The position numbers and the translations under genes are program-made. Below are positions 1 to 40,747 of a stretch of 51,917 nucleotides of DNA, in pieces. The notes under the pieces were generated by a model that was not told where the DNA came from, made no database searches, and was given only the letters and a program-made list of their open reading frames with translations. The DNA is from a virus (lineage: Duplodnaviria > Heunggongvirae > Uroviricota > Caudoviricetes): positions 65,670-117,586 of IMG/VR virus record IMGVR_UViG_3300044950_000141; one strand, given 5' to 3'. Within the stretch, counting starts at the first letter, position 1. Every line of letters begins with the position of its first letter.

Positions 1-2
1 TA

Positions 3-6000: not shown

Positions 6001-9000
6001 TCAAAGCTCATGATTGGAGATTGTTTATTAACTTCTACCAAACATTTACTAAGCAACATCCTAATGCACGTATACAATATGTTTCTGATGATGAGGTGTA
6101 TACAGGATCTGCAGAATTATCTGATGCTATAGATGATGTAACAGAAGGATGGATTGAAGGTATCAAAGCTTTATCTAAAGATAGTAAGTCTCTTATTGTT
6201 CTTGATAAACCAAATAAGGTTTATAAGGTGGGTGACCTATCTGATATAAAGATTAAGACACCTGAGCAAATGGTAGAGTTCTTAGGTAAGATAGGTGTAA
6301 TCTTTCCAATTGATGTATACAATAAACTTACCACTAGAGAAAAGAATGTATTTGGTAGATCAGTGGGAGGCCTTTTAACATCTCTTCGTAGTAAGAGTGA
6401 TATACTAAGTAGTATTACTAGTAAGTTATTAGACATCAAGGGACCATTAAATGCCATGGGTGAAATGTTAGTTAGAGTTACTAATCCTAACTTTGATCCT
6501 ACACATACTAATGTAGAGGGAGAGAAAACTAATGGCTATTCAGAAAACAATAACCCTTCTGTATTTGAGAATGAGTGGAGAGAAGCTGGTACATTAGAAA
6601 ACATTAAGGAGGCTAGACCAGAATTAAATGATCCATTCTCTACAAACAGTCTTGTCTTGAAAAAAGATGGATTATATATTGATGAAGATGGTAAAATTAA
6701 GAAAGATCTTAAGATATCATATATTCAAGGTACTAAAGATATTGATACAGATGATGGTACTTCTACAAGTAAACTAACACTTGGTAATAGATATACACAA
6801 GAGATTAATGAGAACGTTAATGGTAGATTCTATATATTACTTCCTGCTGAAAGTAGTACAGAATGGGAAATGGACCTTGGTGTAAATGTTCCATTTAAAC
6901 AATTTGGTACAAAAGTAGGATGGGATAATACATATAAGATATTCCAAGGATACTTGAAAGATGACATAGCTTTAGCTAAAGATGCTGATGTAAGAAAGAA
7001 ACTTAAGAATATAGGTGATAGAGCTTATGATTTACGTTTCTTCAAAGACATTCTATCTGAAGATATGTTAGCTAAGATCAATACTGAATTAGTAATGAAG
7101 TCTGCTTCTGATGTAGAAGTGGCTGCGTTTATAGCTGAGAATGAAGAGGAGATCAATGGTTCTATAAAAGGATATTTTGATGAATATATAAACACTACAA
7201 TTGCTACGCTTAAAGAATATAAGCAAGTAGTTCTCACTGCAAATAAGAAAGCTTGGATGTATCCAATGCTTAATAGTGTATTTGCTAAGAACTCTGGAAT
7301 CAATAGATATGGTCTTACAGATGAGAAGTTAAGAAACCTTATTGAGTATGTAAACATTAACTATGTCATAAGCAATATTGAATTCCATAAGATCTTATTT
7401 GGTGATCCATATCAGTTTGCTTTAAAGGATGGTGAGTCAGAAGAAACTAAACGTATTAAGTCTTTCTTATCTCCAAGAAGAACAACATTTGATAGCCCAG
7501 AATATAATGAGTTCCTTAACAATGAATTTAACAAAGCTGGTGAAATTGAATTAACACCTGATGATCTTGGATACCATGAACATAAGTCTCACACTAACAC
7601 AGTAACTATCAAGGAGATATATGTGGAAGGTAGATTAATGGGCAGAACAAAAGAAGCAGATGCTCAGTCTTGGATTATGGATACTACAAACAGAGAGTTA
7701 AAGTTAAAGAATGCTCAATGGACAGATGAAGCAGAAACATTCCACCAATGGCAAATGGCTTACACTAGAAATAGAATGGCTGCTAAAGGTAAATATACAT
7801 ATACCAATGATATACTTAAAAAACAAGATGCAGCATTAATTGAAACTCCTAGACCTAAATATGGTTTAGAGGTATTGAAGCCTATTGTAACTGGTAATAA
7901 GTTAGGTAAGACATACTTTGACTTAGTATTAGATAAGTTCTCACAAATGCCTTTGTACTATCAAGCTATTGAAGGAACCACATTGGAAGGACTTTATATA
8001 AAGATGTGGGAAGAGAATATTGGTTATGCTATTTTAGAGAGTGGTAGAAAGATGGGTACAACAGAAGCATTTGACTTATATAAAGGTGGTAAGTTAAACC
8101 CAGAACCATTTAACAACTTAGTTCAAGTTCCTTGGAAAGCTTATGGCATCCAGGTAGAAACTAATTATGATGTTATCAAAGCACAAACACGTGGTAGTCA
8201 ACCTACTAAGTTAGTAACTGTAGACTTGTTTGATAATGGTGTTCCTGTTAGTCAAAAAGCTAAAGAAGCAACAGATAGAAACAATAATATATTGGACTTA
8301 ATGCATGAGAATGCATATAATGTTTTGTTAGAAAGATTAGGTATTGAGGATTTAGGCACTGAGTTTATATTAGCAAACAAACAAGCTGTATCTAATACAT
8401 TAGTATATGAGATGCTTAGAAGAGAGTTAGATGAGAATGCTAAGGATACAGTTCAATTAGATAGTAAAGGTGAGTTCCCTATTCCTTTTGAAGCGTCTCC
8501 TTCTTACAAGCAAATTAAAGATATCCTATACTCTGTTGTACAAAAGACTATGGTTTCTCCTAAAGTAAATGGTGGTCCTAAGGTACAGGTGAGTGTTACA
8601 GGATGGGAAAACTTAGAGAAAGGAAGAAGATTAGCTATCAAAACTGAGGATGGATATAAAGAAATATCTAGAGAAGACTATGACAAACTATCTGATGAGG
8701 AGAAGAAGAAGGTAGTATTAACAGATGATACACTTAAGTTTTATACCAAAGATGATCCATACATGGAAATCATGTTACCTCATTGGTTTGGTGATACGCT
8801 TAGAAAGACTACTAAGTATACGACTGATGAAGAAATCATTAACTACTTAAATATTACAGAGGAAGGTAAATCTATCTTAAGAGGTATAGGATTTCGTGTT
8901 CCTGCACAAGAATTAAGCTCTCTGGTAACATTCAGAGTGAAAAAGTTCTTACCTCAATTCATGGGAGAATCTGTTGTTGTACCTTCTGAAATCACTACTC

Positions 9001-12000
9001 TTGCTGGATCTGACTTTGATATAGATAAGTTAAATACATATTTGAAATCTATATACATAGATGTGAATGGTAACATACGTTTAGTAAAGTGGTTAGGTTC
9101 TGAGGAAGCTACAAAAGACTTCTTCAGAGGTGTATATAAAGATACCATCCAAAGAGACATAGATAAAATTGAAGAGTTTGAAGAATTCAGAAGTAAATTA
9201 GTAGATGTATTATCAAAGCTAGAAAGAATAGAAGGTGCTGCCAGTCCAGAATCTTTGGAGAGTGCACTTACTCCTTCTGAGCTTGACTTCTTCTACGATC
9301 GTTTATCTATATTCAAAGCAATCACTGATCAAGCTGCACAAAAAGATCTTACAGCTGTAGATTACATGAATAAGCAAATTGAAGACTTATCTATTAATAA
9401 AGAAAAGCTGACAAAGGATATACTTAGTAATTCTCTTAGAGAAGATTATGTAAAAGATATGTATAAGCGTTCTCTTGAGAATGAGTACTATGATAGCATG
9501 GAAGAGTTGTTAACTCTACCTGAGAACTTTGAAAGACTTATTTCTCCTGTAAATGATGCTGGATTAGAAAAGCTTGCTGATAAAATAGACAAACTAGTTA
9601 ATCCTAAAGGTGATCAAGTTAAGAACAAGATTCTTAACAGAAACTTTATGACTAAGTTGAGACACTATTTTGTAACAGCTAAAAGATGGATAGGTATTGC
9701 TGCTACAAACATTACAAGTCACTCTCTATTCCAAAAGGGTCAGATATATTTGAACCCAGAAAGATTCTTCATGTTACCCCAGCAAGATAGAAAATTTATT
9801 GGAGATGGTAGTATTATCTTACCTCACAATAAAGTGAAGATTGGTGATAAAGAATATGCTTCATTATCAGGAACTAAAACAGCTGATGGTAAAAAACAAT
9901 ACATATCATCTAGATTATCTGGATATGGTACAGCATTTGTGGATGTAGCTAATAAACCATATATTGTTAAACTTGTTACTAGTGACTTATCTGTAGGTAC
10001 CTTTATGTTCTTAGAGAGAATAGGTGCAGGTGAATACACTGGTATATTTATGAGCCAGCCTATTATCAGAGAATACTTAAAGCAACTTGATAGCCAAAAT
10101 AAAAAAGGTCTATTTAGTAAATTTGATATTGATAGTATTAAAAGTAACTTTGTTACAACAAATAAGGCTATTGAGACAGCAAGAATAGATATAAGTAACT
10201 TAGAGGCAAACATTGCTGATTACTATGCAGGTAACGAATTAGGCATTGAAAGAAATGCTGAACAACATGCAATTCTTAATGAGTTCTTGAAATATGCTAA
10301 GTTAGCTGAATATAACTTTGACCTTACACAGGCTATTAACTATGATACCACTAGATATAGAAGTGGTGATACCTTGTTTAAGAAGCAGGTTAGAACTGAT
10401 ATAACCATAGCAAGAAGTCCATTTAGTGGCATTGCTGAACTATTAGATCCTGAGAATCCTAAGATATTTATTGCTAAGCAAAGACATTATCTTGACTTAT
10501 CTATGGAAGGAATGGGAGTAATATTAAAGCTTGAGCAAGATCAATTTAGAATTAATGTAATTGACCCATTATTAAAACCATATGCTAGAAATAAATATGT
10601 TGGTGCAGATGACTTTGAAAGAATAGCTAACAAGTTGAAAGCCAGCTTCTTAGATTATATTATACAAACAAAGACAGGATTTAACTCAGAGATAAATAAA
10701 TTATTTGTAAATCCAAAGACCTCTGTATCTGCTCAATTAGAAGAAGCTAAGAAGATAAGTTCTAATCCTATCTTGAATGATTTTAAGGTGATTAGTTCTC
10801 CAAGACCAGATGGTGTAATGAGTGTTAAGTTAACTGTGAATATTAAAGGAAGTGCATATGATAAGAACTTATACATAGGATATATGAGACAATTAAGAGA
10901 TACTCCTAGTACTAATGCTTTATATAAAGACTTAGTTAAGATGGCTCTCTTACAAGGTACATATGAGAATGGTGTAAGTATTGCTAGCATTATTCCTATT
11001 GAGGATTCTAGTAAGTATGTTGCTCCTATCATGGCACCTTTAGTATATGATGAATCATTAGATGCCTTTGCAGATGGAGGTTTCCAAAGAAACAACTGGA
11101 AAGACAATAAGGTATTTAAGAAGTTTGAACCTAAGTTTTGGTTAGCTGATGAAGCTCCAGTAGATGTACAGGTAAATGACTTTGGTGATATTATTGGTGA
11201 CATTTATCAATATCAATCCTCTGATTATTTCCCTAGCATTGATAAGTTTGGTCTTTCCACAGACAGAAGAATATTAGCATTAAGTGAAGAGTATGATAGT
11301 TTCTATCTTAGCAATGACTACTTGTTAGTACCTAGAGTGGTACAAATAAAAGGTGGTGAAAGAGTAGATATGAAGACAGGATTATCTATTACAAACTACA
11401 GCTATATAGAGAGAAAGAACCAAGGAGATATGTCATTAAAGAATGTATATGGTTATAAGAAGGTATACTATGATGATGGTACTCCTGTAACATATCAAAC
11501 TACAACCTACAAAGGTGAGGTAATTAATAAACATGTTTATAAACTTATTAACTTACGTGGAGATGGTAGATTAGTATCTGAACACTATACTGACACTAGA
11601 AAGTCTGTATTAAATAATGGCACAGAGAAGATTGAGAATGAGATTTCTGACGATGAAATTCGTATATATTTTAATGAATTAGGTGAACAAAATTTTGTAT
11701 CTTCGCAATCAACAGAACCATATATTCAAATTCCAGAATATGTAACAGATGAAAAACTAAAGAATGCTGATGGCACTAAGAGATTTGCACAGGCAAGTAA
11801 GCTTGGTACTATTACAATCAATCCTCCTAAGAGTGTGGATGAGTTCTTTAACTACTTTGAAGGTAAAGAAGGTGGGCCTACCTCTGAACAAAAAGCTAAG
11901 GTTTTAAATAAGTTAGCTGAGAAAGGATATAACCTTGATGTTATTAAAACTATATTAAACAGTGTTGATAAAATTATTAACTTCCTAGTATTACATGAGA

Positions 12001-12215
12001 AAGACCATGTTGAAAATAATGACATAGATGTATATTGGAAGAATGGTAAAAACTTATTAACAGATGATAAAGTTGATATTGAAACTAGAGCTACAATTGC
12101 AGCATTTGAAAAATTAGGTGGCATTCCTAGTGTAATAGATATAGAATTTGAAGATGTTAATACAGATGATACAGAAGGATCTGATAACCCTACCCCTTGT
12201 GGAACAAAACAATAA
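3..12215 (+). CDS. Giant virion-packaged RNA polymerase / DNA-ejection polyprotein (crAss-like, phi14:2 gp66-type); 5' end lies outside the window
   Basis: The frame is open from base 3 (APKGFGKSFG...) into the ATG at 90, so the gene is truncated by the window edge. It has GFRVPAQ followed by the catalytic GSDFDIDK (DFDID at 9012-9026), zincin YHEIFH (4968-4982), a C-terminal LHEKDH (11994-12008) and N-terminal Gly/Ala-rich hydrophobic segments. Confidence 0.85.
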   Translation, partial: APKGFGKSFGSISAAEIYANRRYPIYDRNMPDLEDVYAENQPWYKILGNGIAKMGLIGAGTFAQSLTNFPNVVDAARSKDLSELSGDPDGYEGSIDNWIKNINEDLPNYASKYVRENPFLSAIPFMKGNAYWWGEKFIPNLGFMLGAVGGAAVQDIAIGAVTEGIGEIPLLANQIGKASLYLNKLFSAETAVGRGLGATQLSKLGRLEQLGERLGKTEAQMFKVTELAQLAAAAKLGKGFRTTTAILGSAMTEAGVESRNGYSMVKDELTNQYKLTHAGEEPTGDDLQQIENLSTNAMNTRFGINMALLTVSNSLQFNNLFKTMVGVPGSRAISGSLTQELEGLGKVGLKEGSLDVFEKKVATSVLGKVWESVRPTGANVFREGVFEEGGQFAAERGTYDYYTRKYKSDKYKEQWNGVNELINSTVYGLNEQFTSTEGLENMLIGGLTGLVVGGVQSGIDAKRGLSKDARLATATNVLNQVGITSTLQNNYDNTVTSAGIAKDMEEAAASGDVFKYKNLQADEFFNFVTSRLPSGMHDVTVEQLNMLKNLSKEQFESMFQLDFNSTNRATVSEYVDGMIAKSNDIKDTYETVNTTFKNPFKINYNADNIDSIVEANNYITFEKYKKDLTYFAAMPTLADSRIQSIQESVNKINPNITTDLLSQLTNNQGLAELAKFYEEKATSLKKTITDYTTPVDKKKINDQIKALRTRSELIAQSLNTGKVDDKTFDSLLNFELNGQDATLGKSVASLHAQELMDYSVDINALEKRKKDASKAYDEMSTKEGFEKYFKEAEEMASDKDAVVNEEEKKEETAPTPETPKEPVKFRFNNANKQAENLEVDREYEMGKVYKTKINKLDDDRWQVVSPDGTYEILPSKEKAQERSDELTDEFNNLQKIKVLALNPDGSIKIEDVNGDIYNIDPRKLSGFSRVQTDQEKLQKIANQLGAAQTRIEIKSGAVSTDDPSKEQQVKEPKKKRVDVFFISTVDSMDDGVAPSKTYQIRTRQFLNNVKNFPNRDNIKVMLVTPKQYKGLGLTTLDNVAYGQETFTPEEQAKLTDVDNGLVTAVYVEQDGSTLYYVDKDGKRLSKVDGTQADVNSLVFANMPTASLYYNYKDAKGNPEPRFKKGEEAEAEAYMEAWKKARADVFASDPNNPQLYSFSISRGMAVETPVDGKPATNHVGDNLIPEKKIKNQANVIVVSTTGTISHNGENYNIPKGRPMLQYGDTLQWLNNRKFTQDEAKSIFEALRLMSEDIQKKAKDGKAVEFNPLYSNFLQNILFWKKGAETKNNQMYIDDRTMDLYLGGKKYNFANLAISEKEIVSQLQNTFNTVNNDSVKKNDEEFTELYFEDGYLKDRQWPNYQSYLLSSKLPNGKGRSIKDTPLSTSVTKPSDQVPYNYRQKYVTLGGLELAVQKVTKPIAPVAKGGATEIGGYKMDGTTTHTRELKALGNVTFTARLNSNGVPAVTVDTIENLESIVADPAKTAPYFDFLKKENLFDATRSEQELMYDFASIAIANQLNKMKNAEPAPAAPVAPAPEAEVAPTVQENVEKLEQLEDTVDDAEEKALEDEINKQIAEKVNALGKTKAPKKRYREIAGLDVPRMTDAELQLFKEWHAKNAAGIPFEVLQRVMTTNDGRQWGAFENGVAKFYKSAARGTEYHEIFHGIFDGFLSAEERQLIFDEFKSKSGKFKDRATGSMIYYEEATDQQAEERIADDFADFRLGKLPAKSIGERILRFFRSIIQFVREFVNKPSKKDELFKAIDAGKFKDTKLNPAVYNQLTQWSVIPGLDEPTTHESVQDVAARFFFEVFSKNMDLYNPKLLTSPEIFDTIKEEFAEEGKLDVLGEEGWSQLVKKSREFLRTFKIQFDENNVVVFNNDDNTNRDYAPEPFSVDWKKQSSFPIKITVGSLVLTVPTNQENALRLQMPDEVISANAKGFMLLNFSRAFATILNKVSNTSAVGKVVDKLLTLAKQDSNYVRLWSKLGGTIDKLDSENKETAMDYSKFKAHDWRLFINFYQTFTKQHPNARIQYVSDDEVYTGSAELSDAIDDVTEGWIEGIKALSKDSKSLIVLDKPNKVYKVGDLSDIKIKTPEQMVEFLGKIGVIFPIDVYNKLTTREKNVFGRSVGGLLTSLRSKSDILSSITSKLLDIKGPLNAMGEMLVRVTNPNFDPTHTNVEGEKTNGYSENNNPSVFENEWREAGTLENIKEARPELNDPFSTNSLVLKKDGLYIDEDGKIKKDLKISYIQGTKDIDTDDGTSTSKLTLGNRYTQEINENVNGRFYILLPAESSTEWEMDLGVNVPFKQFGTKVGWDNTYKIFQGYLKDDIALAKDADVRKKLKNIGDRAYDLRFFKDILSEDMLAKINTELVMKSASDVEVAAFIAENEEEINGSIKGYFDEYINTTIATLKEYKQVVLTANKKAWMYPMLNSVFAKNSGINRYGLTDEKLRNLIEYVNINYVISNIEFHKILFGDPYQFALKDGESEETKRIKSFLSPRRTTFDSPEYNEFLNNEFNKAGEIELTPDDLGYHEHKSHTNTVTIKEIYVEGRLMGRTKEADAQSWIMDTTNRELKLKNAQWTDEAETFHQWQMAYTRNRMAAKGKYTYTNDILKKQDAALIETPRPKYGLEVLKPIVTGNKLGKTYFDLVLDKFSQMPLYYQAIEGTTLEGLYIKMWEENIGYAILESGRKMGTTEAFDLYKGGKLNPEPFNNLVQVPWKAYGIQVETNYDVIKAQTRGSQPTKLVTVDLFDNGVPVSQKAKEATDRNNNILDLMHENAYNVLLERLGIEDLGTEFILANKQAVSNTLVYEMLRRELDENAKDTVQLDSKGEFPIPFEASPSYKQIKDILYSVVQKTMVSPKVNGGPKVQVSVTGWENLEKGRRLAIKTEDGYKEISREDYDKLSDEEKKKVVLTDDTLKFYTKDDPYMEIMLPHWFGDTLRKTTKYTTDEEIINYLNITEEGKSILRGIGFRVPAQELSSLVTFRVKKFLPQFMGESVVVPSEITTLAGSDFDIDKLNTYLKSIYIDVNGNIRLVKWLGSEEATKDFFRGVYKDTIQRDIDKIEEFEEFRSKLVDVLSKLERIEGAASPESLESALTPSELDFFYDRLSIFKAITDQAAQKDLTAVDYMNKQIEDLSINKEKLTKDILSNSLREDYVKDMYKRSLENEYYDSMEELLTLPENFERLISPVNDAGLEKLADKIDKLVNPKGDQVKNKILNRNFMTKLRHYFVTAKRWIGIAATNITSHSLFQKGQIYLNPERFFMLPQQDRKFIGDGSIILPHNKVKIGDKEYASLSGTKTADGKKQYISSRLSGYGTAFVDVANKPYIVKLVTSDLSVGTFMFLERIGAGEYTGIFMSQPIIREYLKQLDSQNKKGLFSKFDIDSIKSNFVTTNKAIETARIDISNLEANIADYYAGNELGIERNAEQHAILNEFLKYAKLAEYNFDLTQAINYDTTRYRSGDTLFKKQVRTDITIARSPFSGIAELLDPENPKIFIAKQRHYLDLSMEGMGVILKLEQDQFRINVIDPLLKPYARNKYVGADDFERIANKLKASFLDYIIQTKTGFNSEINKLFVNPKTSVSAQLEEAKKISSNPILNDFKVISSPRPDGVMSVKLTVNIKGSAYDKNLYIGYMRQLRDTPSTNALYKDLVKMALLQGTYENGVSIASIIPIEDSSKYVAPIMAPLVYDESLDAFADGGFQRNNWKDNKVFKKFEPKFWLADEAPVDVQVNDFGDIIGDIYQYQSSDYFPSIDKFGLSTDRRILALSEEYDSFYLSNDYLLVPRVVQIKGGERVDMKTGLSITNYSYIERKNQGDMSLKNVYGYKKVYYDDGTPVTYQTTTYKGEVINKHVYKLINLRGDGRLVSEHYTDTRKSVLNNGTEKIENEISDDEIRIYFNELGEQNFVSSQSTEPYIQIPEYVTDEKLKNADGTKRFAQASKLGTITINPPKSVDEFFNYFEGKEGGPTSEQKAKVLNKLAEKGYNLDVIKTILNSVDKIINFLVLHEKDHVENNDIDVYWKNGKNLLTDDKVDIETRATIAAFEKLGGIPSVIDIEFEDVNTDDTEGSDNPTPCGTKQ

Positions 12216-12218
12216 AGC

Positions 12219-15200
12219 ATGATTTGTAAAGTAAGATACATAGAGAATCAATACAGAAAGAACTATCCTCAATTAGCTGATAGACTTACAACCATCTATA
12301 ACGATGCTTGGAAGGAAATCACTAGCTCTAAGCTATTTAGAAAGTATGGGGATGGTGATGACGCTACCTATTTATTCTCTTCTTCTGGTACAGCACAAAA
12401 TCAAAAGCAAAGAAATCTTATTGATGCTATCAATAAGAAGTATGGTGGAAACATAGTAAAGCTTAAGACCACATCTTCAGGAATGAACTCAAAGGTAACT
12501 ATTGATGTTCACCCTATTGCTGAAAAAGAATTTAATAAACTAAACCCACAGCAAGTATTGTTCTCTAAGAAAGGACAATTAGAAAGCTCTAAAGCTTCTC
12601 CTAAAACATTAGCAGTCATTAAAGACTTCTTAAATAGAATAGGAGTAGACATGCAGACTGTAGATAAGATTGTTGTAGATGGTGTGAGACAAGATGCTAA
12701 TGGTGCTGCATTGGTAATGCAAAAACTATTACAGGTTGTAGAAGGTAAAGATGACATTGCTCTTCCTGAGGAAGCTATGCACTTTGCTGTAGAGATTTTA
12801 GAACAGAAAGATCCTGCATTGTTTAATCAATTATTAAAAGAGATTGGTAGCTATAGAATGTTACAACAAGTAATAGATCAATATGGCTCTGATCCAAATT
12901 ATCAAACTGCTGATGGCAAACCTAACATCAGAAAGTTAAAGAAAGAAGCTATTGGTAAAGTCTTGGCTGAGGTCGTTATTGGTAAAGCTGAAGGTGTTGT
13001 TGAGAAGCCAGAGCTTATGGCTAAAGCAGAAACTTGGTGGCAAAAGATTATTAACCTCTTTAAAAACTTATTTGTAGAAAGTGGATTTGACACAGCTGCA
13101 ATAAAGGTTCTTACAGGAGAAGCTATTGGTACAGCTGAAGATATTAGAGCTGAAGAAGGAGAGTTCTTTTTACAGACTCCTGGTAACTCACAAGCTGCTG
13201 TATATCAAGGAATTAAAAACTTACAGAATCAAGTTACTACTAAAGATGAAGTACAATCTGATGGAACAATAAAAACTTTCTATTATATTAATGGAAAGAA
13301 AGTTCCTAGAAGGGTAAGTGATCTTGTACAAGATTGGTACACTAGAAGATTTAAAGCTAATGATTTAACTAAAAGTGAATATGCTAAGTCATTAGATGAT
13401 TTTAGAATGGAGAAAGGTACAAAAGGACATTCTGATATTCAATATGCATTCAGCAGATTTGTAGATGAGAATGGATACTTACGTCCTAAAATGTTAGATG
13501 ATTCTGATTACACGTCTCAACTTGATCCATACAACAGAGACTACTATGAAATCCTTAGAGATAACTTGGAGGCAAGATTAAATTCTTTCCCTCCAAATAC
13601 AAGATTCATGGCTGAGGTTACAATATATGATGAGAAAAGAGGAATTGCAGGCACAGTGGATTTCTTAGCTATTGAAGAATCAGGTAAGGTAAATATCTTA
13701 GATTGGAAGTTTATGGATATTAATCTTGAAAAATCTAAAGGAGATATTCCTTGGTACAAGGTTAATTCTTGGAACCTACAAATGGACCAATACAAATCTA
13801 TTATTAAAACAATGTTCAGTTTAAAGGATAAAGACTTTAAACAAACAAGAATGATTCCTATCAGAGCAGTATATGAAGGAGGTAGTGCTAAAGAGAATGT
13901 ACTTCCTATATTAACTTCAGTGGAGATTGGAGATGTTAATATACAGAATATACAAGAAAACTATTTAATTCCTGTAGGTCTTGAAAAAGAAGAAACAGGT
14001 AATAAAAAGATTGACAAGTTATTAGAAAAGCTTAACGCTGTATACAAACAGATATCTAATATTAAAGCTCTTCCTTCTCAGAAACTATCTAAAGCTGAAC
14101 AGTTAAACGCATTGTTCTCTGCTATTAGGCAATTACAGATGAAGCAGAACATTGTACCATTGATATATCAAGCTAAGGTATTGAACAAACAGATTCAAAC
14201 TACCATTGATACATATAATAGTAAATGGAAAGGTACAGATCCTAAGTCTTTCTCTATGGAAGAAATAGATGAATTCACTGATTCAATTATAGGAGCACAA
14301 GAAGCTATTCAAACTTATGCTACATTAGATACAGATCTTAAATTCTTATTCCAAGGAGAGTTATCTGAAGAAGATAAGAAATTAAGAGAAGACTTAAGAG
14401 ATGCTGCTGATAATGCTAGGGATCTAAACACAGAACTACTAGAAGTAATGGATGAGTTTGCTGATAAAATTGTTGCTAATAGACAAGGTATATCTGATAT
14501 ACTTAAACCTGAGAAGATTGTTAGAGGGTTTGCCAAGTGGTTTTCTTCTACATCAATAACACAGGTTAAGGCTATACAGGTTTTATATAGAATGGCAAAT
14601 AAAGCATTTGGTATAGGTGCTCAACAAACACTTGATGAAACTAAAAAGTTACAAACTCTTCAAACTGCATATGAAGAATGGGCTAAGTCTAAAGGACTTG
14701 TTCCTAAGAACTACTTTGATATCTTGATGAAGAAAGGAGAGAATAAATTAATTGATCAATATGATCCTCAGTTTTATAAAGAACTTACTAAAAATGTAGG
14801 TGAGAAAAACTTTGATTGGATTAAAGACAATATTGATATTTCTGAATATAATAAGTTCTTAAAAGAAAGACTTGAGAAAGAAACTGAATACATTAATGAA
14901 AAGGCTAGAGTAGAAGAAGGAGAAGCAAGAGAAAAAGCTATTCAGCAAGAGATTACTAAAGCTGAAAGAATGTATGACACTTCTACAACTGAAGGTCTTG
15001 GATGGTTACAATATGAGCTTATTAGGAAATTTCCTAAAGAGAAATGGGAATCTGTTGAATGGAAAGAACTTAAGAACGTTAAACCAGCTAAAGATTTCTA
15101 TGACTACATTATAGAAAGAAATAACTACTACCAATCTATAGGATATATCCACGCAAAAGAAGCAAGGGTGTTCCTTCCTTGGGTTAGAAAAGGAATGATG

Positions 15201-17180
15201 GAGAAGTTAATCTTTGGTGGTAAGATGGCTATAGGTGAACAGTTCTTAAGAAACATATCTGTAGATGAAGGTGATTTAGGATATGGTGAGACTGATCCCC
15301 TAACTGGTAGACCAGTGAACAGAGTTCCAATCTATTTAACTAGGGAACTAGAAAAAGATTATAGTACAGACTTGTTTAGAAACATGGCTCTTTATAATGA
15401 GATGGCTATTAAGTTTAAACAAATGTCTGATATAGAAGCACAAGCTAGATTACTTATTAGTGTAGAAAGAAATAAGAAAGCTATTGCTACATCTAGATAT
15501 GGTAAGACTATAACAAATGAAAAAGGTGAGTTAGAATATACACCAGACAACACTGAGAATACTCAGCTATTAGAAGATATGGTGAAGGGTATTGTGTATG
15601 GACAGAAGTATATAGAAAGCGAAACCTTTGATCAGTTATTAGGTAAGATGGGTAACTTTGGTGAATCGCTTAATAATGGCCTTGCTAAGTTAGGTGTTAA
15701 TAGTAGAATATTTCCAGAGAATATAGCTAGTAGACAGTTCAGCGTAAACAAAGTAATTAATCAAATTAATAATACATATCAAATCAATGCATTAGGATTC
15801 AACGTTCTATCAGCTCTTTCTAACTTATTTGGTGGTACAGCTCAGTCTATTATCAATGCTGGTACATACTTTACACATGAAGAGTTTGCAGCCACTGAGT
15901 ATTGGATGACGTTAGGTAAGATGACTGGTAATGATAAGGATAAAAGAATTGCAGCATTAGAATACTTTCTTCCTTTAACAGATAATTATAATAAAGAAAT
16001 TGCTAAGACATTATCTATTAGTAAGTTAAGTCAGGAGAATGTCCAAGAGTTTTTAATGATCTTAATGAGAAAGTCAGACTTGTATGTACAGTCAGCTAAC
16101 TTCTTTAGCTTCTTAAGTAATACTATTATAGTAGATGGTGAGGTGGTAAATGCTAGAGAGTATTTAAGAAAGCAACCAGACTATCAAAAGAAATATCAAG
16201 GAACAGCTGAAGAACAAAAAGCTTTCAAACAGAAGTTTAACGATGATGTTAAAAAGCTAATTGAAGATAAAGGAATCATGAAGATAGCTACTATTAAAGA
16301 TGGTAGATTAGAAATTCCTGGTGTAGAAAGATCTTCTGATAGCGTATTAGAACTAAGAAGAAAAGTGCAGTCTTTAAGTAAAGCTGCATTAGGTAACTTA
16401 TCTGAAGATGATATTAGAAAGATCAACCTAAATATATATGGTAAGTCTTTTATGTTATTTAAGAACTGGATTCCTAGACTTGTAGATGTAAGATATGGTA
16501 ACTTGAAATTCAACGCTGGATCTGATGCCTATGAGTGGGGAAGAATGAGAAATGTATTTAGAATTATGTCTGAAGATGTAAGAGGTTCATTATCAAATCT
16601 ATACAACACACTACAAGGTAATGAGAAAGGTGTAGACTTTATGAGAAAGCTTTATGAAAAGAAGAAGGCTGACTATGAATCAGATACAGGTAAAGAACTA
16701 GAAATGGATGAAGTGGCATTCATGGATTTAAATGTAAAGAACGTTAAGGCTCAGTTACTTGATACCATCTTCTTATTAACATTAGTTTCTTTATATGCTG
16801 GAGTTAAAGCATACGCTCCAGATGATGATGAGCTTAGCAAAAACCAACACAGATTCTTTGTCAAAGCAACAGATAAACTTAAGGATGAGCTTTTATATTT
16901 CTATAATCCTACAAGCATACTTAATCTAGTTTCACAAGGTTTCTTCCCAGCAAAAGGTCTTATTGAAAACTATGCAAAGTTCTTTAACAATTTCATGTTA
17001 GAAAACTACTACATAGTTACAGGAGATGAAAAAGCTGCAGATAAAAACTTTGTAATCAAGTATGGTATGAAAGCTGTTCCTGGTTTGAATCAGTTTGCAT
17101 CTTGGCTACCAATGTTCTATCCTCAAGCAGCTAAAGACTTAGGAATTAGGGCCCAAGCTCAGTATGGATTTGTTAGGTAG
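12219..17180 (+). CDS. Large virion cargo/ejection protein with a PD-(D/E)XK nuclease-like domain
   Basis: 1653 aa, 3 nt after the RNAP stop. Motif GIAGTVDFLAIEESGKVNILDWK at ~13641-13709, degenerate zincin-like LPEEAMH, long helical C-terminal half. Confidence 0.7.
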   Translation: MICKVRYIENQYRKNYPQLADRLTTIYNDAWKEITSSKLFRKYGDGDDATYLFSSSGTAQNQKQRNLIDAINKKYGGNIVKLKTTSSGMNSKVTIDVHPIAEKEFNKLNPQQVLFSKKGQLESSKASPKTLAVIKDFLNRIGVDMQTVDKIVVDGVRQDANGAALVMQKLLQVVEGKDDIALPEEAMHFAVEILEQKDPALFNQLLKEIGSYRMLQQVIDQYGSDPNYQTADGKPNIRKLKKEAIGKVLAEVVIGKAEGVVEKPELMAKAETWWQKIINLFKNLFVESGFDTAAIKVLTGEAIGTAEDIRAEEGEFFLQTPGNSQAAVYQGIKNLQNQVTTKDEVQSDGTIKTFYYINGKKVPRRVSDLVQDWYTRRFKANDLTKSEYAKSLDDFRMEKGTKGHSDIQYAFSRFVDENGYLRPKMLDDSDYTSQLDPYNRDYYEILRDNLEARLNSFPPNTRFMAEVTIYDEKRGIAGTVDFLAIEESGKVNILDWKFMDINLEKSKGDIPWYKVNSWNLQMDQYKSIIKTMFSLKDKDFKQTRMIPIRAVYEGGSAKENVLPILTSVEIGDVNIQNIQENYLIPVGLEKEETGNKKIDKLLEKLNAVYKQISNIKALPSQKLSKAEQLNALFSAIRQLQMKQNIVPLIYQAKVLNKQIQTTIDTYNSKWKGTDPKSFSMEEIDEFTDSIIGAQEAIQTYATLDTDLKFLFQGELSEEDKKLREDLRDAADNARDLNTELLEVMDEFADKIVANRQGISDILKPEKIVRGFAKWFSSTSITQVKAIQVLYRMANKAFGIGAQQTLDETKKLQTLQTAYEEWAKSKGLVPKNYFDILMKKGENKLIDQYDPQFYKELTKNVGEKNFDWIKDNIDISEYNKFLKERLEKETEYINEKARVEEGEAREKAIQQEITKAERMYDTSTTEGLGWLQYELIRKFPKEKWESVEWKELKNVKPAKDFYDYIIERNNYYQSIGYIHAKEARVFLPWVRKGMMEKLIFGGKMAIGEQFLRNISVDEGDLGYGETDPLTGRPVNRVPIYLTRELEKDYSTDLFRNMALYNEMAIKFKQMSDIEAQARLLISVERNKKAIATSRYGKTITNEKGELEYTPDNTENTQLLEDMVKGIVYGQKYIESETFDQLLGKMGNFGESLNNGLAKLGVNSRIFPENIASRQFSVNKVINQINNTYQINALGFNVLSALSNLFGGTAQSIINAGTYFTHEEFAATEYWMTLGKMTGNDKDKRIAALEYFLPLTDNYNKEIAKTLSISKLSQENVQEFLMILMRKSDLYVQSANFFSFLSNTIIVDGEVVNAREYLRKQPDYQKKYQGTAEEQKAFKQKFNDDVKKLIEDKGIMKIATIKDGRLEIPGVERSSDSVLELRRKVQSLSKAALGNLSEDDIRKINLNIYGKSFMLFKNWIPRLVDVRYGNLKFNAGSDAYEWGRMRNVFRIMSEDVRGSLSNLYNTLQGNEKGVDFMRKLYEKKKADYESDTGKELEMDEVAFMDLNVKNVKAQLLDTIFLLTLVSLYAGVKAYAPDDDELSKNQHRFFVKATDKLKDELLYFYNPTSILNLVSQGFFPAKGLIENYAKFFNNFMLENYYIVTGDEKAADKNFVIKYGMKAVPGLNQFASWLPMFYPQAAKDLGIRAQAQYGFVR

Positions 17181-17210
17181 TTATTGCTATATTATGTAGC
17201 AATAATTTTC
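17181..17210 (+). terminator. Candidate intrinsic terminator after the cargo gene
   Basis: Perfect 9-bp inverted repeat TTATTGCTA / TAGCAATAA followed by TTTTCC, directly after the TAG stop. The stem is AT-rich. Confidence 0.5.
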
Positions 17211-17218
17211 CTAATTCA

Positions 17219-17247
17219 TTGAAAATAAATTAAATTCACTACTTTTG
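17219..17247 (+). promoter_or_regulatory. Bacteroidota sigma-A type promoter for the fibre gene
   Basis: TTG (17219-21) N18 TACTTTTG (17240-47) matches TTG..TAnnTTTG. Confidence 0.65.
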
Positions 17248-17345
17248 CTAATAAGGGTGCATATGCTATAACTAGTTATGCACCTTATTGTATATCATAC
17301 ATATATGTATAGCAAAAAGTTGTTATAACATCACAATATCAAAAC

Positions 17346-20300
17346 ATGAATATATCTTGCACAGAAGAAGTGTGTCCAATAATAATGAATGCTATTTGTG
17401 TATTCTATGAGGGTGCTGATTTAATATATACAGGGATTAATACTAATGATAATCTTCAAACTGCTCTAGAAAAAATAGATGCTAAGTTTGGTGATGCTTC
17501 TATTGGATATATATTTCAAAATGGTGTTATTCAAGCATCTCCAGGTGATCCTGTAAAACTAGGTGGTACATTAAATCAAAATACAGTTATTCTTAGTAGT
17601 GGATATACATTCACTATAACAGACTCTATTGAATCTGCTGCTTTGATAACAACAGGTGGAACATCCTCTGACTTTGTTAAAGGAGATGGCAGTCTTGACA
17701 GTGGCCCATATCAACCTGCAGGTAATTACATATCTTCTCTTTCAGGAGATGGTACTGCTACAGGTCCTGGAGCGTCTACACTAACACTAGCCACAGTAAA
17801 TACTAGTCCTGGTACATATGGATCTAGTACACTAGTTCCTAGGGTGACAGTTAATGGTAAAGGATTAGTGACAAACATCACTCCTGTTACAATAACTGTT
17901 CCTTCTGCTATTCTTATATTTGTAGGAGATGTGACAGGTGCTGGTATAACAGGATCTCCTACAACTCTTACATTACAGACAGTCAATCCTAATGTATATA
18001 GTTCTAATACATTTTTAAAGTTTGGTGTAAATGGAAAAGGTCTTGTAACATCTGCTGCTCCTATCACAGCATTAGATATAACTGGTGTATTAGGTTACAC
18101 TCCTGTACCCACTACAAGAACGCTTACAATTAATGGTTTAACACAAAACCTAGCATCTAATAGAACTTGGTCTGTAGGAACAGTGACAAGCGTAGGAATA
18201 TCTATGCCTTCTGGATTCACTGTAGGACCTCCTGTCACAAGTAGTGGAAACATTAATGTAACAGCTAATGGTACAATCGCTCAATATATAAGAGGTGATG
18301 GATCTATAGGTAGTTTTACAGCATCCACTTCAGGAAGTTCTGGAACATCAGGAACAGATGGTTCTTCTGGTACATCTGGAAGCTCTGGTTCAAGTGGTTC
18401 ATCAGCAACATCAGGTACATCTGCAAGCAGTGGTACTAGTGGTACAAATGGAACAAGTGGAAGCTCTGGTACGTCAGGCTCAAGTGGAACATCAGCAACA
18501 TCAGGCAGTTCAGGAACAGATGGCTCTAGTGGGTCAAGTGGTACATCAGGATCTTCAGGTAGTTCAGGTACATCTGCAAGCTCTGGTTCCTCTGGCTCTA
18601 GTGGAACCTCAGGTTCTTCTGGTTCTTCTGGATCTAGTGCAAGTTCAGGAACCTCTGGCAGCTCAGGTACAGATGGTTCTAGTGGCACTGATGGCTCAAG
18701 TGGTACGTCAGGAAGCTCAGGAACCACTGGTACAAGTGGTACATCAGGGAGTTCTGGTACATCTGGAAGTTCAGGTACAAGTGCTTCCTCAGGAAGTTCA
18801 GGAACAGATGGTTCAAGTGGAACATCTGCAAGCAGTGGAACTAGTGGAACTAGTGGATCTAGTGGTACGAGTGCAAGTTCTGGTTCTTCAGGAACTACTG
18901 GCACAAGTGGAACAGATGGGTCTAGTGGAACTTCAGCTTCTAGTGGGTCAAGTGGAACTAGTGCATCCTCTGGAACCAGTGCGTCATCTGGAACTAGTGG
19001 AACCTCTGGTACTAATGGAACATCAGGTAGTTCAGGAACATCAGCAACTAGTGGTTCATCAGGAACAAGTGCTTCTTCAGGACTATCAGGTGATAGATAT
19101 GCCACAACATCAACAACAACTTTTACTCTTGGTAATGCAGGAACAATAACTGTAGGTACTCAATTAGCATATACAGTGGCTCAATCAATCATTGTAGTGT
19201 ATGATGCTTTGAATTTCCAAGAGTGTGAAGTCTCATCATATAACCCAGCAACAGGCTCTCTATCTTTCTTAGCACCTACTAGAACAGTGGGTGGTGGTAC
19301 TTATTCATCATGGACAGTAAACTTAGATGGTGCTAGTGGAGGAGATGGAAGCTCTGGTACTTCTGGTTCAAGTGGAAGCTCAGCAAGTAGTGGTACAAGT
19401 GGTACGTCTGGAACAAATGGTACAAGTGGAAGCTCTGCAACAAGTGGGTCTTCAGGCACATCAGCTAGTTCTGGTACAAGTGCGTCATCAGGTACATCAG
19501 GAGTAAATGGTACTTCAGGAACTGATGGAAGCTCAGGTACTAGTGGTTCTAGTGGAACATCAGGAACCAATGGTACATCTGGTACTAATGGAACCTCTGG
19601 CTCATCAGGTACATCAGGAAGCAGTGGAAGCTCAGGAACTAGTGCGTCATCTGGTTCTAGTGGTACTAGTGCTTCAAGTGGATCTAGTGGTTCTAGTGGA
19701 AGTTCTGGTACCTCTGGCTCAAGTGGAACAAGTGGAACTAATGGAACATCAGCTTCAAGTGGATCTTCAGGAAGTTCAGGAACAAGTGGTAGCTCTGGAT
19801 CTAGTGGTACGAGTGCTTCATCAGGAAGCTCTGGTTCTAGTGGTACAACAGGAACTAGTGGATCAAGTGGAAGCAGTGGCACCTCTGGAAGTTCAGGTTC
19901 AAGTGGATCTAGTGGAACAAGTGCATCTAGTGGGTCAAGTGGTTCTACTGGAACTAGTGGAACAAGTGGTTCATCAGGAAGCAGTGGAACAAGTGGTAGT
20001 TCAGGAAGTAGTGGAACAGCAGGTTCAAGTGGTTCAAGTGGTGTAGGTGCTGTTATTGTGCTTGGAGCAGGAACATTATCATCTGTTAGATGTGGTGCGA
20101 GTAATAGTGCAACAGGTTCGTACACAGGTAACCTTGCAGGTTCAGGTAATACAATTGGTGGTTCTGCTTACAATACTATAATTGGTGGAGCTATCAATAC
20201 TGCTAGTGGAGCTTATTATGCTCATATAGGTAATGGTGCTAAACACACAGCTAGTGCAAATTTTTCTACTGTAAGTAATGGATATTGCAACATAGCAAGC

Positions 20301-36645: not shown

Positions 36646-37251
36646 ATGAACGTTGATAAATTAAAAGGGCACATTCCTGATGGGGTGATTGCTCAAATCC
36701 CTAGTGTAGTAGATAAGTTTGAGATCAATACACCTTTACGTTTAGCCCATTTTCTAGCACAAACAGGACATGAATCTGGCGGATTCAAAGCTGTTACAGA
36801 AAACTTAAACTATGGAGCTGCAGGTCTTTCAAGTATCTTTAAGAAATACTTTACACCTGAAAGTGCTAAAGAGTATGAACGCAAACCTGAAAAAATAGCA
36901 AATATAGTATATGCAAACAGAATGGGGAATGGTAACCAGGCTTCTGGTGAAGGTTATAAATTTCGTGGAAGGGGTTTTATCCAACTAACAGGAAAGGATA
37001 ACTACGCTGCTTTTGACAAGACAGTTGATGATGATATCATAGCTAACCCAGATCTTGTAGCTACAAAGTACCCACTTTTATCTGCAGCTTGGTTCTTCCA
37101 TAAGAATGGATTACACAAGATTGCTGACGAGGGGGCTACAGATGCAGTGGTAACCAAGGTAACCAAGCGTGTTAATGGTGGAACAATTGGTCTACCAGAT
37201 CGTATTAAACACTTTAATGAATACAATAATCTTTTAAATGGTAGTATATAA
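36646..37251 (+). CDS. Glycoside hydrolase family 19 endolysin
   Basis: AHFLAQTGHESGGF, ENLNY and YKFRGRGFIQLTGKDNY. Confidence 0.9.
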   Translation: MNVDKLKGHIPDGVIAQIPSVVDKFEINTPLRLAHFLAQTGHESGGFKAVTENLNYGAAGLSSIFKKYFTPESAKEYERKPEKIANIVYANRMGNGNQASGEGYKFRGRGFIQLTGKDNYAAFDKTVDDDIIANPDLVATKYPLLSAAWFFHKNGLHKIADEGATDAVVTKVTKRVNGGTIGLPDRIKHFNEYNNLLNGSI

Positions 37252-39640: not shown

Positions 39641-39928
39641 ATGGCCCAGAATACTAATCGCCCTCTCAAAGCTTATGTACGCTTTGATGGTACTGGAAGA
39701 ATCGTTCCAAGCAGCCTAATCTTAAGAAGAAAGAAACCCAAGGTTGGTAAGTGGGTAGAGATCCCAGCTTATGAATGTTGCAATTACGTTCCTACAACAA
39801 CTACTACAACCAGTAGTACAAGCACTAGCACAACTACTAGTACATCTACTAGCACAAGTACAAGTACAACAACAACTACTACGACTGCTACTCCAACAAC
39901 AACAACAACAACAACTCCTGCACCTTAA
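39641..39928 (+). CDS. Small protein with ECC motif and long poly-Thr/Ser tail
   Basis: N-terminal ~50 aa domain paralogous to the next gene, then a ~45-residue T/S tail ending PAP. Confidence 0.85.
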   Translation: MAQNTNRPLKAYVRFDGTGRIVPSSLILRRKKPKVGKWVEIPAYECCNYVPTTTTTTSSTSTSTTTSTSTSTSTSTTTTTTTATPTTTTTTTPAP

Positions 39929-39940
39929 AATTAAATAAAC

Positions 39941-40747
39941 ATGGCAAATAGCAACAATAGATTAAAAGCATATGTACGTTACGATGGTACAGGACGTGTC
40001 ATAGCAGGTAGCTTGATCTTACAAAGATTCAAACCACAAGTGGGTAATTGGGTGGAGATAGATGCAAATGAGTGTTGTAATTATGTTCCAACAACCACTA
40101 CAACTACGTCTTCTACTAGTACTAGTACAAGCACTTCTACAAGCACTTCTACAAGTACTACAACAAGTACATCTACTTCTACAAGTACAAGCACTTCTAC
40201 AAGTACAACAACAACAACAACAACAGCTGCACCAGCAGAATGTCCTGAAGATTATACAATTGGTCAAGCTGCATTAGGTGGTAAAATTGCATACATCCTA
40301 CAATCAGGTGACCCAGGATATGATTCAAATTTACAACAAGGATTAGTAGCTACAATAGCAGATATTTCAACAGGTGCACAGTGGGGATGTTTTGGAACAG
40401 CAATTGCAGGAGCAGATGGTACAGCTATTGGTACTGGTAATCAAAATACTATAGATATTATGGCTGGTTGTGCTACAGCAGGTATTGCAGCTAGACTTTG
40501 TGGTGATTTAGTTCAGGGAGGATATTCTGATTGGTATTTACCTAGTCAAGATGAATTAAATAAATTATACCTAAATAGAGTAGCTATTGGTGGTTTTACG
40601 AATAACGGCTATTGGAGTTCTACGGAGTACGCCACCATCTTCGCGTGGGACCAGAATTTCCTCACTGGCAGTCAGGACGGCAGCGATAAGACCTTCCCAA
40701 ACTATGTTCGCGCCATTAGGGCTTTTGCATGTACAATTCCTAGATAA
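39941..40747 (+). CDS. Anchor domain + poly-Thr/Ser stalk + DUF1566 (Lcl/C-type-lectin-fold) domain; putative DGR target
   Basis: GYSDWYLPSQDELNKLY..YWSSTE..AW..NF..YVRAIRAF is the DUF1566/CLec pattern. Confidence 0.8.
   Translation: MANSNNRLKAYVRYDGTGRVIAGSLILQRFKPQVGNWVEIDANECCNYVPTTTTTTSSTSTSTSTSTSTSTSTTTSTSTSTSTSTSTSTTTTTTTAAPAECPEDYTIGQAALGGKIAYILQSGDPGYDSNLQQGLVATIADISTGAQWGCFGTAIAGADGTAIGTGNQNTIDIMAGCATAGIAARLCGDLVQGGYSDWYLPSQDELNKLYLNRVAIGGFTNNGYWSSTEYATIFAWDQNFLTGSQDGSDKTFPNYVRAIRAFACTIPR
40598..40726 (+). other. Putative diversity-generating retroelement variable region (VR)
   Basis: About 52% GC with 10 CpG in 129 nt (hand count) in an AT-rich, CpG-poor genome. NNC/NNT codons occur at the positions that are AAY in canonical TRs. 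Confidence 0.7.

Follow-up and report, generated by a model that had tools for sequence, protein, structure and literature searches.

The locus described here belongs to a lake phage whose genome of 117,586 bp (IMG/VR virus record IMGVR_UViG_3300044950_000141) consists of a linear contig devoid of terminal repeats, to which CheckV assigns a completeness of 100%; the stretch analysed, hereafter the window, corresponds to its last 51.9 kb (51,917 nucleotides). The giant virion protein of the phage, whose ORF exceeds 4,070 aa, contains a DFDID RNA polymerase motif (nt 9012), the one crAss-like marker tested, which points to a place for this phage among the crAss-like phages. Phages of this group infect Bacteroidota. 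The gene of interest codes for a lectin-like protein built from successive domains (Table 1) and is located directly after the endolysin gene (36646-37251), outside the tail-fibre module. The upstream segment 38425-39928 encodes two further proteins which combine Cys-Cys and poly-Thr features and are devoid of any lectin domain, in addition to a phrog_4417 protein of unknown function. According to the translations, the N-terminal ECC domain is shared with the paralogue encoded at 39641-39928, in which the stalk is present and the lectin absent.

The lectin domain is recognized by the PF07603 Lcl_C/DUF1566 profile (E 4e-11, 43.6 bits against a cut-off of 34.9), and its AF2 model, with a pLDDT of 95.8, finds its best PDB match by Foldseek in the C-terminal domain of the Legionella Lcl protein (8q4e_A; E 8.9e-9, TM 0.74 normalised by target length). 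The putative variable region (VR) occupies the last 47 of the 268 codons of the ORF, inside the DUF1566 fold and at the 3' end position expected of DGR targets.

Table 1. Features of the lectin gene and of its predicted variable region.
Feature	Position in the window	Strand	Basis
Predicted DGR target gene, 268 aa: N-terminal domain, poly-Thr/Ser stalk, DUF1566/Lcl_C domain with C-terminal VR	39941..40747	+	ORF; Pfam; phrog_4245 (unknown function); syntenic orthologues L040-L045
N-terminal domain of ~50 aa, ending in ECC	39941..40090	+	Translations
Poly-Thr/Ser stalk, residues 51-99	40091..40237	+	Translation; repeat families D8 and D11
DUF1566/Lcl_C C-type-lectin-like domain	40238..40747	+	AF2 model, Foldseek match
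Span homologous to the 140-nt template of a Sediminibacterium MAG: VR and IMH-like end	40587..40726	+	Alignment with G039:C8:7788-7927
Mutated VR core, 22 adenine-site substitutions	40607..40697	+	Position list against the template
IMH-like 3' end, 24 nt, identical to the VR end of the target of the likely host	40703..40726	+	Alignment
ACTIPR tail, found in this phage lineage only, with its stop codon	40727..40747	+	Alignment of relatives

The 3' end of the gene, which the initial annotation had singled out for a switch in GC and CpG content, for its NNC/NNT codons and for a short ACTIPR tail, forms a compositional island in the phage genome. Over 40598-40726, i.e., about the last 43 codons, the GC content reaches 0.519 (window: 0.354) and CpG occurs 10 times, a number attained at this locus only among all 129-nt windows of the 117,586 bp (mean 0.75); an equally high GC content is found at only 5 places in the whole genome. 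The GC3 rises from 7% over the 120 upstream codons to 67% in the VR and IMH, where the variable NNC/NNT codons are separated by the fixed motifs YWSSTE, AW, QNF, G, Q, K and YVRAIRAF. Both the sequence and the codons were confirmed, and the tail proved to be real and lineage-specific; at the corresponding place the ORF of cellular targets terminates, and a GC hairpin and an AT-rich element of the TAACAATTTAAC type are present.

Some 3,200 homologues possess this domain in a highly conserved form, and their differences accumulate at the same C-terminal positions. In 55 homologues aligned without gaps, 97.1% of the residues found at 18 variable positions can be reached from AAY codons by changing the first two bases (88.5% expected), and the residues K, E, Q, M and W account for only 2.9%, as against 11.5% in the upstream parts. 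The family as a whole thus has the appearance of a DGR product.

DGR machinery is missing from the phage genome itself. When the whole genome was searched on both strands for a template (TR), with any change permitted at adenines, none was found in cis; the best candidate exhibits 34 non-adenine mismatches over 129 nt. The RVT_1 profile gave no match in the 117.6-kb genome, nor did tblastn with the reverse transcriptase (RT) and Avd of the donor DGR described below; the SQ...YxDD motif is absent from all long ORFs, and no integrase was found. The initial annotation had seen no TR, RT or downstream hairpin in the window and had recommended that the full genome be searched for a TR homolog and an RT: this absence is upheld, for the TR and the RT now over the whole genome. 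Downstream of the phage VR, the only foldable element is an interrupted, AT-rich stem that closes a loop of 28 nt, which is not significant (z = +0.74); both the GC-rich GRNA-loop hairpin and the AT-rich element of cellular VRs are absent 3' of it. The viral relatives are similarly deprived, since no RT occurs in any of the 38 viral contigs that share the VR scaffold or possess a relative of the DUF1566 gene, including a 114-kb relative which is 99% complete. When 34 related viral loci were compared with themselves by BLAST, up to a distance of 10 kb, in search of TR/VR pairs, only short chance matches away from the VR were obtained.

The nucleotide scaffold of the VR was searched as an exact pattern consisting of the YWSSTE codons, N15, GCGTGG, NNN and CAGAAYTTC. 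It matches four viral contigs only in IMG/VR, all of them fragments with a completeness of only 8-27%, together with 49 bacterial genome contigs, mostly from Bacteroidota, and at least 120 metagenome contigs. Many of the contigs bear two copies located 590-720 nt apart, which are evident VR/TR pairs, and Avd and RT adjoin the TR in all 17 TR-bearing loci tested, with RTs sharing 59-70% identity within the lineage. TRs built on the same nucleotide scaffold also occur outside the Bacteroidota, in a Nitrosomonas MAG (L061) and in Chlorobiaceae MAGs (L056, L078, L089); in L061, the only one of these tested, Avd and RT adjoin the TR. Such a distribution suggests that this DGR lineage may have spread horizontally. 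In the cellular VRs of the lineage (L047, L054, L065, L071, L092 and L055), conserved AT-rich units of the TTATTTAA/CAATTTA type are followed by a GC hairpin, such as for example CCGCGTAAGCGG, about 25-45 nt past the stop codon, and the AT-rich run and the hairpin may constitute a lineage-specific target-recognition element.

All scaffold copies, comprising about 46 TRs, were ranked as candidate templates for the phage VR. The top-ranked TR occupies positions 7788-7927 on contig 8 of a Sediminibacterium MAG (JBBAJV010000008.1, hereafter G039:C8), and the second-best among the ~46 displays 17 non-adenine mismatches to the phage VR. The DGR of G039:C8 is complete and canonical, organized in the order target, GC hairpin (GTCCGC/GCGGAC), bAvd, TR and RT, with profile matches of 2e-20 for bAvd and 1e-18 for RVT_1, the latter with IGNLTSQ and YVDD motifs; its target is a secreted Lcl_C protein of 590 aa that contains its own VR. 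Integrases lie upstream and the genes era, der and lon downstream, which identifies this DGR as a chromosomal island. The VR of the bacterial target (7104-7241; L216) lacks 2 nt that the TR contains, so that the 590-aa ORF ends in ...GKLHRLCSRH instead of ...YVRAIRAF; the deletion corresponds either to a real frameshift or to the assembly collapse of a mixed VR population.

When the 140-nt TR is aligned with the phage sequence, 25 mismatches are counted, of which 23 fall on the 53 TR adenines and only 2 on the 87 other bases (Fisher p 8e-10). The substitutions of the mutated core affect codon position 1 in 10 cases and codon position 2 in 12, with five double hits within a single codon. Of the two non-adenine mismatches, one (40598) lies at the 5' edge of the TR span; at the other (40722) the TR has a T, and a C is found in the bacterium's own VR as well as in all three phage VRs available from the window and its relatives, a difference which reads as the distinction between IMH and IMH*. 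Outside the VR, the lectin domains of the phage protein and of the bacterial target are no more than 34% identical at the protein level and differ by large indels, and the likeness at the nucleotide level is thus confined to the span that a TR cDNA is able to replace. The initial annotation had anticipated a template peptide resembling NNYWSSTENNNNNAW.QNFNNGNQNNNNKNN; the Sediminibacterium TR encodes ANNNYWSSTENDNNNAWNQNFNNGNQNNNNKNNTNYVRAIRVF, beside bAvd and RT, and the proposal of an orphan VR served by a remote or trans-acting DGR is supported by a TR which differs almost only at its adenines. The other possibility it had raised, a VR captured from another DGR phage, finds no support, this TR being present in no IMG/VR contig and an RT in none of the 38 related viral contigs. 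Judging from these alignments, the span homologous to the TR is a genuine DGR variable region, borne at the tip of the lectin of a phage that lacks the DGR machinery.

A search of 200 further genomes of the family failed to recover this TR, the only matches being VR-like with 74-76% identity, and it is absent from the two Sediminibacterium MAGs containing fragments of related phages (G244 and G333). For a MAG contig which contains a cellular VR with the same IMH (L055), BLAST detected no TR within 8 kb.

Other observations bear on the identity of the host. Sediminibacterium is a member of the Chitinophagaceae, in the phylum Bacteroidota, and the GC content of the MAG contig (35.1%) is close to that of the phage (35.4%). 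Fragments of related phages, colinear and with 65-76% nucleotide identity, are binned in 2 of 101 Sediminibacterium MAGs: the entire contig G244:C14 (59,453 bp; L231, L239) corresponds to a piece of a related crAss-like phage, colinear with ~24-86 kb of the phage genome, and G333:C10 is another such piece. Searched for a spacer-type host link, positions 1-20000 of the window gave short matches of 23-40 nt to the 101 Sediminibacterium genomes (E 1e-3 to 1e-5), on which no claim is based. A lake Sediminibacterium is the likely host of the phage, an assignment that rests on one MAG.

The variation of the VR among related phages offers a second line of evidence. Two groups of relatives, L040-43 and L044-45, agree with the window in their neighbouring genes and in their ACTIPR tail. 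Compared to the window, they differ upstream of the VR at 30 of 360 nt, with 22 of the 30 at codon position 3, and within the VR at 33 of 105 nt, with 29-32 of the 33 at codon positions 1-2. Between L040 and L044 there is not one difference in the 360 nt upstream, against 17 in the VR, 15 of which fall on TR adenines. Pairwise, the VRs of the window, L040 and L044 thus differ at 33, 33 and 17 positions, with 29, 31 and 15 of these differences at TR adenines, and the internal non-adenine mismatches to the Sediminibacterium TR amount to none in L044 and two in L040. The adenine-specific variation among related genomes, the lack of which, along with that of any TR/RT in genome or host, the initial annotation would have taken as the mark of a fossil, is therefore present. 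The difference between L040 and L044 is patchy, consisting of two separate clusters with some mutated codons in common. All three lineages share one VR/ACTIPR junction located exactly at the end of the IMH, which argues for a single origin, and these comparisons argue that the VR has been altered after the gene entered the phage lineage.

An orthologue from another related phage (L240, 361-1035, with a FACATP tail) possesses a VR which fits the TR of a Ferruginibacter MAG (L069 3527), with 6 non-adenine and 22 adenine mismatches, and not the Sediminibacterium TR (16 non-adenine mismatches), so that orthologous phage genes carry VRs derived from different TR lineages. As far as sequences can tell, these data indicate that the phage gene has been repeatedly rewritten, in a DGR-dependent way, from cellular templates. 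A second DUF1566 paralogue found in a related phage (L242 727-1428) exhibits drifted codons, a GC content of 0.45 and 3 CpG, and the equivalent of its VR is nearly invariant among six database homologues; it represents the contrasting case of a fossil VR. Among the contigs assembled by Logan, the exact allele of the window recurs in many lake-water runs from 2020-2025; alleles of the relatives recur as well, that of P0008 in 6 contigs and that of P0007 in 4, and this recurrence of the same alleles across samples and years implies that VR turnover is slow. The VR-length pieces of Logan contigs with about 24 differences are indistinguishable among host TRs or VRs and other phages, and are uninformative on minority variants.

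Owing to the absence of an RT from the phage and to a VR that differs from the Sediminibacterium TR almost only at adenines, the binding tip of the lectin is seemingly diversified by the likely host. The account that we regard as probable, albeit with a good deal of room for doubt, is that the phage VR was written in trans by the chromosomal DGR of a lake Sediminibacterium, the likely host. The phage would replicate inside a DGR-positive Sediminibacterium cell, in which the TR RNA would be reverse-transcribed with misincorporation opposite adenines, and the cDNA would then replace the phage VR, guided by the common IMH end and by the homology of the 5' scaffold. We infer both the direct homing of the cDNA into phage DNA and the role of the MAG species as host. 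Homing into the phage VR would be expected to be rare because the downstream GC hairpin is absent, and such rarity would explain that alleles last for years and yet differ between lineages.

The DGR of BPP-1 (mtd VR - avd - TR - brt) resembles the present one by its adenine-specific flow from TR to VR, by a VR at the 3' end of a phage receptor-binding gene with a lectin fold, and by an IMH and IMH* that differ by a few bases. However, target, Avd, TR and RT are all carried by the BPP-1 phage, with a GC hairpin 3' of the VR, whereas the present phage carries only VR and IMH, the remainder being located in the bacterial chromosome. Supplied with these functions in trans, a BPP-1 phage deleted for avd-TR-brt was diversified (Guo et al. 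2011, PMC3240598); when the hairpin was lost, tropism switching fell by more than 1000-fold, with residual homing (PMC3240598). This trans-complemented BPP-1 and the associated heterologous targeting, for which IMH and hairpin suffice as a target, show the same rewriting of a phage VR by functions from another replicon; they were engineered, whereas the case described here is natural and devoid of a hairpin (PMC3240598). With respect to its class, the VR resembles that of the Legionella pneumophila DGR (LdtA) and of the DUF1566/CLec2 class, with an integrative island and a surface-protein target, and the Sediminibacterium donor counts among the ordinary representatives of that class, the targets described there sharing, unlike ours, a cellular genome with their RT (Wu et al. 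2017, PMC5758913).

Remote targets are equally documented in cells: Treponema denticola has up to seven of them, located more than 100 kb away (PMC5758913, PMC4891356). In both situations one TR and RT would serve distant VRs, recognized through VR and IMH homology, but the remote targets of those systems are chromosomal and the present one is phage-borne. Wu et al. (2017, PMC5758913) argued that remote targets make sense only for DGRs that are not associated with phages; the converse, in which a cellular DGR has its target on a phage, is not considered by these authors. The crAss-like phage LMMB similarly possesses a fibre-type protein diversified by a DGR, with RT, TR and target all reported to be self-encoded (PMC7290462). 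In large surveys VRs are sought only beside the RT, as stated by Roux et al. (2021), in whose own survey remote targets were undetectable. A literature search of partial coverage yielded no paper in which a cellular DGR serves a target located on a phage.

The main rival of trans homing assumes that the host DGR diversifies the bacterial target only, and that the phage acquires pieces of host VRs by homologous recombination or gene conversion through the scaffold, with no cDNA homing. The two-patch difference between L040 and L044 is unlike one whole-VR replacement and counts against trans homing: the two clusters and the common mutated codons resemble conversion tracts, and recombination accommodates them at least as well. 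The two internal non-adenine mismatches of L040, the missing hairpin and AT-rich element and the slow turnover of the alleles likewise speak against trans homing. The phage VR also lacks the hairpin required for efficient homing, and host and phage VRs share, besides their 24-nt 3' end, several stretches of the scaffold, 6 to 18 nt long, that contain no mismatch. Such homology arms are nevertheless very short, the flanks beyond the TR span being unrelated (34% protein identity), the three phage lineages all have their junction precisely where the IMH ends, and no phage allele equals the single host VR allele available; we consider recombination unlikely, with perhaps one chance in a handful.

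Still less probable is a fossil, i.e., a VR once written by a DGR, whether that of a cellular donor or an element of an ancestral phage, which now persists as a static coding sequence. The lack of machinery and hairpin in the phage, and the occurrence of the same alleles over many samples and years, would be in keeping with it. However, the non-adenine positions, all but two and including 33 third-codon positions, still match the TR, at a time when the flanks of the relatives differ at 18% of third positions; the true fossil paralogue L242 has acquired drifted codons, a GC content of 0.45 and near-invariance; and L040 and L044 differ at 17 VR positions between identical flanks. It is very improbable that the phage has, or recently had, its own RT/TR cassette, missed by the assembly or carried by a co-infecting phage or satellite: the linear contig without terminal repeats and the fragmentary state (8-27% complete) of the four viral contigs with the same scaffold leave some place for it, against which stand the CheckV completeness of 100%, the absence of RT from the 114-kb relative that is 99% complete, and a TR which is absent from the viral contigs of IMG/VR and whose sole exact copy adjoins era, der and lon. 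Finally, ordinary mutation with diversifying selection on binding-site codons, in the absence of any DGR, would account for variable residues that face the ligand in the lectin fold, where positive selection is expected, but has hardly any credibility left, as it is already contradicted by the TR match (identity at all non-adenine sites but two), by the residue statistics (97.1% of AAY-reachable residues against 88.5%) and by the codon-position data (five within-codon double substitutions, no synonymous drift in the VR, and a GC3 of 67% in a genome of 35% GC).

For the VRs of four other RT-less viral fragments (L002-L005), only 8-27% complete, fitting TRs exist in MAGs of Flavobacteriales and Crocinitomicaceae; the mismatches number 14-28 at adenines and 2-5 elsewhere. 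One of them, L004 (IMGVR_UViG_3300020185_000312), contains at 2896-4009 three tandem mini DUF1566 genes of 141, 107 and 107 aa, each terminated by a VR; the TRs that fit these VRs come from MAGs of Crocinitomicaceae and Flavobacteriaceae, with 14-23 mismatches at adenines and 2-3 at other bases, and the TAACAATTTAAC-type element is retained past the stop codon. No RT occurs on this contig, which is only 11% complete. A broader reading, to which we give slightly less than an even chance, is that crAss-like and other Bacteroidota phages of lakes routinely carry RT-less DUF1566 targets, which would be rewritten by any cellular DGR that they meet.

DGRs have been treated as self-contained elements, with RT, template and targets travelling in one genome, and the present case is that of a complete phage genome which keeps the target alone, the match to its template being found in a bacterial chromosome. 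Should homing across replicons be true, phages could leave it to the host to diversify their binding proteins, the RT-less orphan VRs encountered in viromes would not necessarily be fossils, and the matching of TRs with VRs would link uncultured phages to their hosts. In this respect, a phage, a DGR-positive host and the sequencing of a 140-nt amplicon would make up a simple experimental system. If, in addition, such rewriting were routine, the host retroelement would act as a shared generator of diversity for phage adhesins, representing a new kind of exploitation of the host machinery, and the synonymous scaffold of a VR would record the last DGR lineage that templated it, hence the host, as a new linkage signal.
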